DNA of 64,000 nt from positions 544,001-608,000 of the forward strand of contig CAXWPJ010000009.1 in assembly GCA_963664115.2 (NCBI GenBank), read 5' to 3'. The DNA is from Terriglobia bacterium. GTDB lineage: Bacteria; Acidobacteriota; Terriglobia; 20CM-2-55-15. The notes under the pieces were generated by a model, which saw only the letters and a list, made by a program, of their open reading frames with translations, was not told where the DNA came from and did no database searches. Position 1 is the first letter of the stretch; each line of letters opens with the position of its first letter. The position numbers and the translations under genes are program-made. Positions 49,386 to 60,784 of the stretch are shown one piece after another.

Positions 49386-50000
49386 ATGGGCGTGCGTTTC
49401 ATGTCTCGGCTGGCGTTCTCGGTGCGACGGCTCTACGATTGGGTGATCGGCTGGGCCGACAGTCCGTACAGCCAATGGGCCCTGTTCGGCATCGCATTTG
49501 CGGAATCGTCCTTCTTTCCCATACCACCCGATATTCTCCTCATCGCTCTCGGCGTTGCACTCCCCCTCAGAGCACTCCGTTACGCCCTGATATGCAGCCT
49601 GGGGTCGGTGATTGGTGGCATTTTCGGATATTGGATCGGATACGAATTCTTCGGGATCATTGGCGAGCCCATCGTCCGGTTTTACGCCGCAGAAGACCAA
49701 TATGTCAGGGTGCAGGAATTATATCGCCAGTATGACGCCTTCGCCGTGGCTATAGCAGGTCTCACCCCCATTCCGTACAAGGTCGCAACGATCACAGCCG
49801 GATTCTTCGAGGTCAACTTCGGACGTTTCGTGCTGGCGTCCGCTGTGAGTCGATCCCTTCGCTTTTTCGTGATTGGCGGCCTGATTCGCGTTTTCGGGGC
49901 TCCGATCCGGGCATTCATCGAAAAATATTTTGAGATTTTGATCATAATATTCCTTATCCTATTGGTCGCCGGCTTCGCAGTAGTTCGGTTATTTTTTTAA
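49386..50000 (+). CDS. YqaA/DedA family membrane protein
   Basis: FAESSFFPIPPD, TPIPYKV and SRSLRFF motifs; GGAGG RBS. Confidence 0.93.
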   Translation: MGVRFMSRLAFSVRRLYDWVIGWADSPYSQWALFGIAFAESSFFPIPPDILLIALGVALPLRALRYALICSLGSVIGGIFGYWIGYEFFGIIGEPIVRFYAAEDQYVRVQELYRQYDAFAVAIAGLTPIPYKVATITAGFFEVNFGRFVLASAVSRSLRFFVIGGLIRVFGAPIRAFIEKYFEILIIIFLILLVAGFAVVRLFF

Positions 50001-50016: not shown

Positions 50017-50496
50017 ATGCCCAATCCAACCAACGAGCTGAAGGTCGGCGATGAAGCGCCGGACTTCACTCTCCCATCGCATCTCGACTCCGAGATGACA
50101 TTGTCCAGTTTCAGGGGCAAGAAGAACGTGGTCATGGCCTTTTACCCGGTCGCGTTCACACCCGTGTGAACGCTGCAGATACCGGCGTATGAGGAAGATC
50201 TTTCCGAATTCGACCGGTCCGATACCCAGGTCCTGGGTATTAGCATCGACTCGACATATTCCAACAAGGCGTGGGCCGAATCACTGGGTGGAATCTCCTA
50301 TCCCTTGCTGAGCGACTTCTGGCCTCACGGAATGGTCGCATTGAAATATAACGTCCTTCGAAAGGAAGGCATCACCGAGCGTGCGATCTTCATAATCGAC
50401 AAGAAAGGCATCGTGCGCTATATCGACGTTCACGACATCGGCGACCAACCCAAGAATTCAGTTCTTTTCGAAGAACTGAATAAGATCGCGGGTTAA
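50017..50496 (+). CDS. selenocysteine-containing peroxiredoxin (AhpE-like); in-frame TGA at 50167-50169
   Basis: [11 protein letters not shown]...[13 protein letters not shown]...LLSDFWPHG...ERAIFIID. The TGA falls at the peroxidatic Cys position and the protein contains no Cys. Confidence 0.92.
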
Positions 50497-50510
50497 GGAA
50501 TCCGACCGGC

Positions 50511-51233
50511 ATGGGCGGCGAAACCGCCCATGCCAACCTCCCCTCCCAGATGCCCATTCAGATTGCCAGAGCCTGTATTCCTTACACGCCTTTCAAGCGT
50601 GACCTCAATGGTTCGCGGGTAGCTCTCGTGACAACCGCAGGCGTCTATGCGGAGGGAATGGAGCCATTCACGGACAACGATTTAAGCTTCAGGAAGATTC
50701 CCAGTGACGTCGACACCGGAGAGCTTCGGGTTGTTGCCGGTCACTACGACCCCACCTCTGCCGCAGCCGATATCAACTGCGTATTTCCATTGGATAGACT
50801 GAGAGATCTCGTTTCAAACGGTGTCGTGGGGAAGATATCCGACTTCCACATTTCGATGGGACTGACGACCCAGTTGCGGAAACTCAAGGAAGATGTCAGT
50901 TGGACTCTGGCAGAAGAGGTCGCACGGCTACGCCCGGATGTGGTGCTTCTGACCGGTGGCTGACCGCTCTGCCATCGGACGGTCGTCACGATTCAACGGG
51001 CCATCGAGTGCATGGGTATCGCTTCAGTTCTGATTACGGTCTCGCCCGACGAGTCCGAACAAGCCGGCCCCTCCCGCGCGCTATACCCCAAGCCGTTTAC
51101 CGTGGGTCAGTCGCTCGGTCCCCCGCACCAGGCTGCACTCCAGCTTCGAATAATTTCAGACGCGCTGGATCTCTTGAAGAACCCCGGAGAACCCGGGACA
51201 ATCGTTACGAAAGACTACGGTCCTACAGCGTAA
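50511..51233 (+). CDS. PrdB/GrdB-family reductase selenoprotein B; in-frame TGA at 50961-50963
   Basis: VALVTTAGV, HYD, DINCVFPLDRL and LLTGG-U-PLCHRTV..QRAIE..GI (UxxC) motifs. Confidence 0.9.
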
Positions 51234-59633: not shown

Positions 59634-60784
59634 GTGGTCCCCGTTAAACAGACTGTAACTTATCAAGATTTCGCCGGCCGCGCTGGACTTTAGCAAGGAT
59701 GTCGGAAGCCGTTGCAGTCCAGATGAAGGGTTTCGGGTCTTCATTGTGACGAGCGAGGTAGTCCTCCACGGCCTGGATCAACTCGGGGACCGAGCGGAAA
59801 ACGCCACGCCGGAGTCGTTGCTCGGACAGATCCCGGAAAAAGCGCTCGACCATGTTGAGCCACGACGCACTGGTTGGCGTGAAGTGCACATGAAAACGCT
59901 TGTTACGCTTGAGCCAGTTGACGACTTTCTGATGTTTGTGAGTCGCATAGTTGTCGCAAATAATGTGGATCTCCTTATCTTTCGGCATGGCGCGTTTGAT
60001 CTGATTCAGAAACCGGATCCATTCCTGATGGCGATGCTTTGGCATGCAGGTTCCGATGACCGAACCGTCCAGGATGTTGAGCGCGGCGAAAAGCGTGGTT
60101 GTCCCGTTACGTTTGTAATCGTGGGTCATGGTGCCACACCGCCCCTTCTTCAGAGGTAACCCGGGTTGCGTGCGGTCCAGGGCCTGCATCTGGCTCTTCT
60201 CATCGCAGGACAAGACAATGGCGTTTTCCGGTGGGCTCAGATACAGACCGACCACATCCTCCAGCTTTTCGGCGAATCGTTTGTCGTTGGATAGTTTGAA
60301 GGTTCGTGACAGATGAGGCTTCAGTCCATGGACCCGCCAGATTTTCCCGACCGTGGACTCGCTCACGCCAACGGCCTTCGCCATCGAGGCCCGACTCCAG
60401 TGCGTCGCGTTCGGGGGCTTCTCTTCCAGTGTCTTCTTGACGATCCGGGCTCGCTTCCGGCGACTGATCGTGGGAATCCGTCCGCTTCGCGGCGCATCCT
60501 TTTCGATCCCAGCCAAGCCCTGTTCCACAAAACGATTGCGCCAGCGGCCCGCTTTCTGGCGCGTGATCTCCAAGCGGGCGGCGATCTCATAATTGTTCCG
60601 ACCTTCAGCGGCCAGTAATACAATTCGGGATCGTTCCGCCAACCGGACCGATGTACTCCGGCTTCGACTCAGTCGCTCCAACTCCATCCGCTGCTTGTCA
60701 TCCAATTCAATGGTCGGTGCTTTCCTCATTCTCTATTGGACGTTGGAAAGCTATTTTAGTTACATTACTTCGAGCGGGGTACAC
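59634..60784 (-). mobile_element. IS630-family insertion sequence, copy 2 (1151 bp)
   Basis: Appears identical to copy 1; CTAG at 59631-59634 and 60784-60787. Confidence 0.95.
59644..60729 (-). CDS. IS630-family DDE transposase
   Basis: Protein identical to 3815-4900. Confidence 0.97.
   Translation of the reverse strand: MRKAPTIELDDKQRMELERLSRSRSTSVRLAERSRIVLLAAEGRNNYEIAARLEITRQKAGRWRNRFVEQGLAGIEKDAPRSGRIPTISRRKRARIVKKTLEEKPPNATHWSRASMAKAVGVSESTVGKIWRVHGLKPHLSRTFKLSNDKRFAEKLEDVVGLYLSPPENAIVLSCDEKSQMQALDRTQPGLPLKKGRCGTMTHDYKRNGTTTLFAALNILDGSVIGTCMPKHRHQEWIRFLNQIKRAMPKDKEIHIICDNYATHKHQKVVNWLKRNKRFHVHFTPTSASWLNMVERFFRDLSEQRLRRGVFRSVPELIQAVEDYLARHNEDPKPFIWTATASDILAKVQRGRRNLDKLQSV

Follow-up and report, generated by a model that had tools for sequence, protein, structure and literature searches.

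In the clostridial D-proline reductase system, the selenol of PrdB is proposed to attack the substrate, with a Cys of the same protein acting in resolution and PrdC in re-reduction, as given in the accessible excerpts of PMC3091704. The M. tuberculosis peroxiredoxin AhpE (Rv2238c) depends on an external reductant: mycoredoxin-1 can act on AhpE-SOH directly, and mycothiol provides a second route (excerpts of PMC4360819); outside Actinobacteria, the reductant is called an open question for Deinococcus in the excerpted text of PMC8945050. The available parts of the selenoproteome catalogues (PMC1088965, PMC2398784, PMC1794560 and PMC13188914) include "Proline reductase PrdB, UxxC" and "Prx, TxxU" among their selenoprotein types, describe PrdB-labelled selenoproteins as abundant in seawater metagenomes, list Anaeromyxobacter dehalogenans with peroxiredoxins and a "proline reductase", and equate PrdB with proline reductase. 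The operon section of the 2026 review PMC13188914 describes grdA-grdB, prdB-prdC, Prx-SELENOW and Prx-like/AhpD-like clusters, and in that section a peroxiredoxin paired with PrdB is absent. The main text of BSepDB (PMC13326102), in its accessible portion, has no match for PrdB or peroxiredoxin. Both protein types are already known as selenoprotein families, and their pairing was not found in print in our searches of full-text literature; the BSepDB database, supplements, NCBIfam comments and subscription journals could hold it.

The window, that is, the whole 64,000-nucleotide stretch of DNA that was analysed, carries two adjoining genes of these types that are seemingly broken by stops. The first, on the forward strand at 50017..50496, encodes an AhpE-like peroxiredoxin of 159 aa with a PxxxTxxU motif, in which a TGA (50167-50169) stands at the peroxidatic site (PVAFTPV-U, U51) and no Cys is present; an earlier reading made from the sequence only (the sequence-only reading) had described it as a Cys-free Sec-peroxiredoxin, and the TGA at the active site and the lack of Cys are confirmed. 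Its best sequence match in the PDB is M. tuberculosis AhpE (E 1e-32), its best solved relative, with which it shares a single peroxidatic residue, and the PxxxT/SxxC(U) motif together with the lack of a resolving Cys fits the AhpE-type one-Cys class. It differs from the AhpE system with mycoredoxin-1 and mycothiol in that Sec replaces Cys, and in that the proposed reductant is encoded next door and belongs to the PrdB-like type, for which a Rossmann-like fold is predicted. No Cys besides the peroxidatic residue occurs in 58 of 66 linked peroxiredoxins among the best 80 of 577 loci. A candidate SECIS hairpin (50181..50218, forward strand) has a z of -2.74 over the 80-nt stretch from the UGA, with synonymous constraint at codons +5, +12 and +16. 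RNA runs gave small shares only. RNA libraries contain short near-identical contigs over the peroxiredoxin gene, and one 288-nt RNA contig spans the peroxiredoxin to 50572; from these, neither co-transcription nor the level of expression can be read. At some loci of Acidobacteriota and Myxococcota (L020, L058, L155 and L162-L164), the Sec peroxiredoxin is immediately preceded by another peroxiredoxin gene, of the typical Cys type.

The second gene encodes a stand-alone, PrdB-like predicted selenoprotein. With TGA read as U, positions 50511-51233 form one 240-codon frame with a single TGA (50961-50963) in LLTGG-U-PLCHR. Two ORFs had been joined through this TGA in the sequence-only reading, and the join holds, with an identical TGA in 23 of 23 close orthologues. 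The start given there (50511, for 240 aa, 14 nt past the peroxiredoxin) is probably wrong. Because ATG 50511 forms part of a hairpin stem (11 bp, 50508-50534), and because its counterpart is out of frame in all four same-genus genomes while MPIQ is kept in each, we take 50550, 39 nt downstream and 53 nt past the peroxiredoxin stop, as the likely true start. The gene would then run from 50550 to 51233 on the forward strand and encode 227 aa with U138-P-L-C141-H-R. Long upstream open frames in two other genomes (G022 and G025) were considered as fusions and rejected as run-on in another frame.

The joined protein matches the PrdB family TIGR04483 over residues 12-236, across the TGA, with an E of 1e-42 and 146 bits (cut-off 300), and PF07355 GRDB at 32.1 bits against a gathering cut-off of 22, with the UxxC motif. 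In an alignment of 50 sequences U/C138, C141, H142 and R143 are invariant. The likeness to D-proline reductase PrdB extends to 36% identity over 214 aa with an annotated PrdB, a similar length and a co-positioned UxxC-H-R. The differences are a score below the TIGR04483 cut-off, a genome in which prdA, prdD, prdG and racemase were not found, U-P-L-C where PrdB has U-G-T-C, MGLTT where PrdB has MGGGG, and a peroxiredoxin as neighbour. The peroxiredoxin-linked proteins also form their own clade (SH-aLRT 100), apart from clostridial PrdB and from other stand-alone forms, in a quick, midpoint-rooted tree of 82 rows where the clade comprises 33 linked-type rows and 5 without context.

Several observations support reading the in-frame UGA as Sec. 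The host genome (96.96% complete) encodes selA, selB, a TGA-containing selD and tRNA-Sec, all over cut-off; the sequence-only reading had allowed for a pseudogene if such machinery were missing, and it is present. The nearest named relatives belong to Terriglobia (Acidobacteriota). Orthologues were found in 23 of 61 genomes searched, at 61-100% identity and all with the TGA, and in other phyla the UGA aligns with Cys: the 79 cross-phylum loci (the best 80 of 577 matches minus L099, left out because of a scaffold gap) divide into 45 with TGA and 34 with Cys. Prediction of a SECIS 3' of the UGA had likewise been suggested as a check, and a SECIS-like hairpin with a GGUC loop was found at 50974..50992 on the forward strand under strong synonymous constraint; codons +5 to +9 past the UGA, five synonymous-variable codons, are identical in 23 of 23 orthologues, compared with a mean synonymous codon identity of 0.36 over 77 other columns. 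At these 79 loci, 45 of 45 UGA genes and 16 of 34 Cys genes are predicted to form a hairpin of ≤ -4 kcal/mol, a contrast that is descriptive only, because the loci are related. Against the Sec reading, the window's own 80 nt 3' of the UGA fold no more stably than shuffles (z +1.84). On this comparative evidence the PrdB-like gene is intact and very likely encodes a selenoprotein; both genes of the pair, for all their apparent stops, very likely make selenium-containing proteins.

The AlphaFold2 model of the PrdB-like protein is confident (pLDDT 94.6) and places U138, in an exposed position, just ahead of a helix that starts at 139 and bears C141, an arrangement like that of dithiol redox motifs. 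Structure comparison gave generic Rossmann-like folds (best Z 8.9, rmsd 3.4, 137 aligned), there is no PDB sequence relative and no Foldseek match at E ≤ 0.001, and hits in the Atlas were confined to GRDB clusters plus one cluster without a name. The model thus suggests a Rossmann-like alpha/beta fold without a clear solved relative in the libraries searched. Set against the redoxin-type peroxiredoxin reductants (mycoredoxin, bacilliredoxin and thioredoxin), the listed fold matches of the model are Rossmann-like, with Z ≤ 8.9. A complex prediction for a natural Cys/Cys pair scored 0.01 and weighs neither way.

The sequence-only reading had proposed checking whether the gene pair is conserved, and the linkage to the peroxiredoxin is kept across phyla. 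In family f1 (35 genomes) both genes occur in the same 23 and neither in the other 12; they are adjacent in 22 of the 23, the remaining pair being split at two contig ends, and in 6 of these 22 the PrdB-like start lies ≤4 nt from the peroxiredoxin stop or overlaps it. The best 80 of 577 GTDB matches span Acidobacteriota, Chloroflexota, Myxococcota, Bacillota, Methylomirabilota and Nitrospinota, and a peroxiredoxin lies within 4 kb in 67 of them (upstream and co-oriented in 48, convergent in 18, downstream in 1). Across the lineages of these 80 loci, the peroxiredoxin is the only widely shared real neighbour. The 66 pairs compared here comprise 22 U/U, 23 C/C, 19 with a Cys peroxiredoxin and a Sec partner, and 2 of the reverse. 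In trees of 30 pairs, both proteins group f1 with Myxococcota (99/96 and 90/93) and other Acidobacteriota elsewhere, a grouping across taxonomy that is compatible with transfer of the pair as a unit.

Genome samples centred on other carriers extend this picture. In a myxobacterial order sample (Anaeromyxobacteraceae-centred, 101 genomes) the partner occurs in 31, each time adjacent to the Sec peroxiredoxin, which itself occurs in 32. The family of an Alicyclobacillus genome has both genes in 1 of 45 genomes and neither in 44. Ktedonobacteria (the Dictyobacter class, 81 genomes) comprise 42 genomes with both, 3 with the partner only, 19 with the peroxiredoxin only and 17 with neither, which leaves the peroxiredoxin without a partner match in 19 of 61 peroxiredoxin-bearing genomes; one peroxiredoxin-only genome (G289) is flagged as unpublished, and leaving it out gives 18 of 80. 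Summed over samples, which are each centred on one carrier and contain non-independent kin and many incomplete genomes, the peroxiredoxin is present in 97 of 100 partner carriers and the partner in 97 of 117 peroxiredoxin carriers. The dependence is one-sided: the PrdB-like protein is tied to the peroxiredoxin, and the peroxiredoxin can stand alone.

Since the pair is kept together across several phyla, the orphan likely recharges the peroxiredoxin rather than fermenting proline. Specifically, we give about an even chance to the PrdB-like selenoprotein being an accessory reductant of the adjoining AhpE-like peroxiredoxin, which lacks a resolving Cys. In such a cycle, peroxide would oxidise U51 of the peroxiredoxin to the selenenic acid, and U138 of the PrdB-like protein, at a predicted helix N-terminus, would attack the oxidised U51 directly or after small-thiol capping. 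C141 could then resolve the mixed bond to give an intramolecular Se-S, freeing the reduced peroxiredoxin, and a housekeeping donor such as thioredoxin/TrxR may re-reduce the PrdB-like protein. This would amount to reuse of the selenol/selenenyl-sulfide cycle proposed for clostridial PrdB, an oxidised protein now standing where pyruvoyl-bound proline does there. TrxR was found in five of five carriers tested. The window's own genome encodes bshC (G000:C2:1029608-1031095), YpdA (C8:26338-27279) and a BrxA/B bacilliredoxin (C9:1168403-1168810), and no glutathione synthetase was found in it. Among the five carriers bshC was found in three and gshB over cut-off in none; bacillithiol as a common cofactor was rejected on the two in which bshC was not found.

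A role as reductant of the Cys-free peroxiredoxin had been suggested in the sequence-only reading. It remains the best reading, although the role is not obligatory everywhere, given the peroxiredoxins without a partner match in Ktedonobacteria. Because these 19 genomes keep the peroxiredoxin without a partner match, with only one Cys in 17 of the 18 solo proteins examined, other reductants can serve; and because the solo form persists with no gained resolving Cys, the partner is accessory at most. Gain of a resolving Cys by partner-less peroxiredoxins was looked for and not seen, the extra Cys in G163 being at positions common to linked copies. Also against the reductant reading, the window's genome already has TrxR, bacilliredoxin and YpdA; a shared transcript is impossible at the convergent loci (18 of 67 linked, among the best 80 of 577); and the same peroxiredoxin type occurs elsewhere in the genome in 10 of 12 unlinked genomes checked from these 80. 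A peroxiredoxin-PrdB fusion was also not found: a weak search for longer forms returned none, the fusion partners seen among 38 long representatives were PF09338 or an HTH domain and never a peroxiredoxin, and an apparent fusion at L099 proved to be a 100-N scaffold gap. Five peroxiredoxin positions are fixed in 19 linked sequences and relaxed in 18 equally diverse solo sequences, and no real example of the reverse was seen, a weak hint of contact with the partner from a solo set that is mostly one clade.

More broadly, with confidence somewhat short of even, we propose that this PrdB-fold clade, which routinely carries the wrong label "proline reductase", represents a new class of peroxiredoxin reductases that forms, with the AhpE-like peroxiredoxin, a two-gene, horizontally moved peroxide-defence module, the double-Sec form of which would cycle via an inter-protein diselenide. 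The proposal gives a testable function to proteins that automated gene calling truncates at the UGA and annotates as "D-proline reductase PrdB", labels that make Stickland fermentation seem commoner in soil and marine genomes than it is. It also offers a candidate for the reductant of AhpE-type peroxiredoxins outside Actinobacteria. Each of the four possible Sec/Cys combinations exists in nature, and the 23 Cys/Cys pairs (best 80 of 577) are expressible without Sec machinery.

The rival that survives best, though we consider it rather unlikely, is that the PrdB-like protein has peroxidase activity of its own, or repairs other oxidised targets as a reductase, and is kept beside the peroxiredoxin by common regulation and a common Sec supply, with no electron transfer between the two. 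A peroxidase activity of GrdB is reported by title in the reference list of PMC3091704, redox-enzyme selenoprotein genes are known to cluster (PMC13188914, section 9, as excerpted), and the peroxiredoxin does occur alone in Ktedonobacteria. An independent enzyme, however, should often lack this particular peroxiredoxin, and nearly all partner carriers have it (97 of 100). The link also survives in the 23 Cys/Cys pairs that need no Sec and through rearrangement to the convergent layout, and a peroxiredoxin neighbours none of 7 loci of other stand-alone PrdB-like clades (1.5 kb flanks). It is improbable, in our view, that the protein carries out PrdB-type chemistry on a small molecule without pyruvoyl activation (an onium compound, a sulfoxide, an oxidised small thiol or a selenium species), the peroxiredoxin protecting it or sharing a stress regulon. 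The 36% identity to true PrdB fits such chemistry, as do DedA neighbours in two lineages, DedA proteins being linked to selenite. Yet no transporter, racemase or catabolic gene is common to the lineages (best 80 of 577 loci), both the MGGGG loop and the U-G-T-C motif of PrdB are altered, and neither bshC nor gshB is general among the five carriers. A redox relay would share the first step with the reductant reading: the peroxiredoxin would sense peroxide and oxidise the PrdB-like protein, which would pass the oxidation to a specific target, for signalling rather than clearance. The one-sided dependence fits this scheme and the five fixed positions fit it weakly, whereas no regulator or target gene is conserved nearby (best 80 of 577 loci) and a vicinal resolving Cys suits turnover; we regard a relay as quite improbable. 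The last rival, a genuine D-proline reductase subunit with its PrdA lost from the assembly, or else a pseudogene, is largely refuted and very improbable: TIGR04483 is the protein's best family match and databases label homologues "D-proline reductase PrdB", but the score is less than half the cut-off, the prd partners described below were not found, the clade is separate, and the UGA is conserved with a Sec-specific hairpin.

The search for proline reductase partners returned little. The absence of a prdA or grd partner, first noted for the window, holds genome-wide: PF09338, the pyruvoyl proprotein, has no match in the window's genome, and annotated PrdA, PrdD, PrdG and racemase have no tblastn match in this 97%-complete assembly; the same queries match prd operons strongly. 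PrdE gave a single genome match at E 0.024. The complete prd operon elsewhere that would have spoken for a Stickland role was not found, nor were prdA and grdE in 37 relatives. PF09338 occurs in 0 of these 37, a set in which no positive control rang, and, among distant carriers, in none of one set of 4 and in 2 of another set of 33, where positive controls did ring and one genome is common to both sets; in one of the two positive carriers it lies beside GrdB-like genes of that genome's own. On gene content and phylogeny the PrdB-like protein is not a proline reductase, and the redox role other than Stickland reduction that had been put forward is well supported by the missing prd/grd proprotein and by the peroxiredoxin linkage across phyla.

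Other PrdB-like forms were also seen. A second stand-alone type of ~390 aa, with T-P-T-U-P-x-C and a C-terminal extension (L028, L030, L031 and L032, in G016, G033, G006 and G032, respectively), has no peroxiredoxin neighbour, and PF09338 was not found in those genomes. In P0132 and P0156 the PrdB-like domain sits behind an N-terminal extension, with an HTH_3 domain in P0132, which is possibly a redox-sensing regulator. Weak matches to the UGSC selenoprotein family in 2 of 50 members (alignment A4; P0176), with a best E of 2e-4, hint at a distant relation.

Upstream of the peroxiredoxin by 16 nt lies a gene for a DedA/VTT membrane protein (49386..50000, forward strand). Its placement in one operon with the pair had been proposed; the three genes are probably co-transcribed here, but DedA is not a conserved part. 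It is upstream in 12 of 23 family loci (short flanks), and the window's DedA has no match in 72 more distant loci among the best 80 of 577. DedA was accordingly rejected as a core part of the module and, judged by this distribution, is a local passenger. The intergenic hairpin at 50508..50534 (forward strand; 11 bp) is single copy in the genome, has no U tract and no family match, so that a REP repeat, a terminator and an Rfam family were all rejected. In 14 of 22 relatives' loci an inverted repeat that differs in sequence occupies the same position (by eye), and relatives without it have short spacers, often with a coupled stop and start. As a guess, the hairpin could stabilise the peroxiredoxin segment of the transcript or adjust the relative amounts of the two proteins. 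On the reverse strand, a convergent gene for a small, Zn-ribbon-like protein with two Cys pairs (51223-~51500; no family over cut-off) overlaps the PrdB-like stop by 11 nt; it is present in 18 of 23 family loci and absent from those of other phyla among the best 80 of 577. Finally, the reverse strand of the window also carries a 361-aa ORF at 59644-60729, which we take to resemble an IS630-type transposase.
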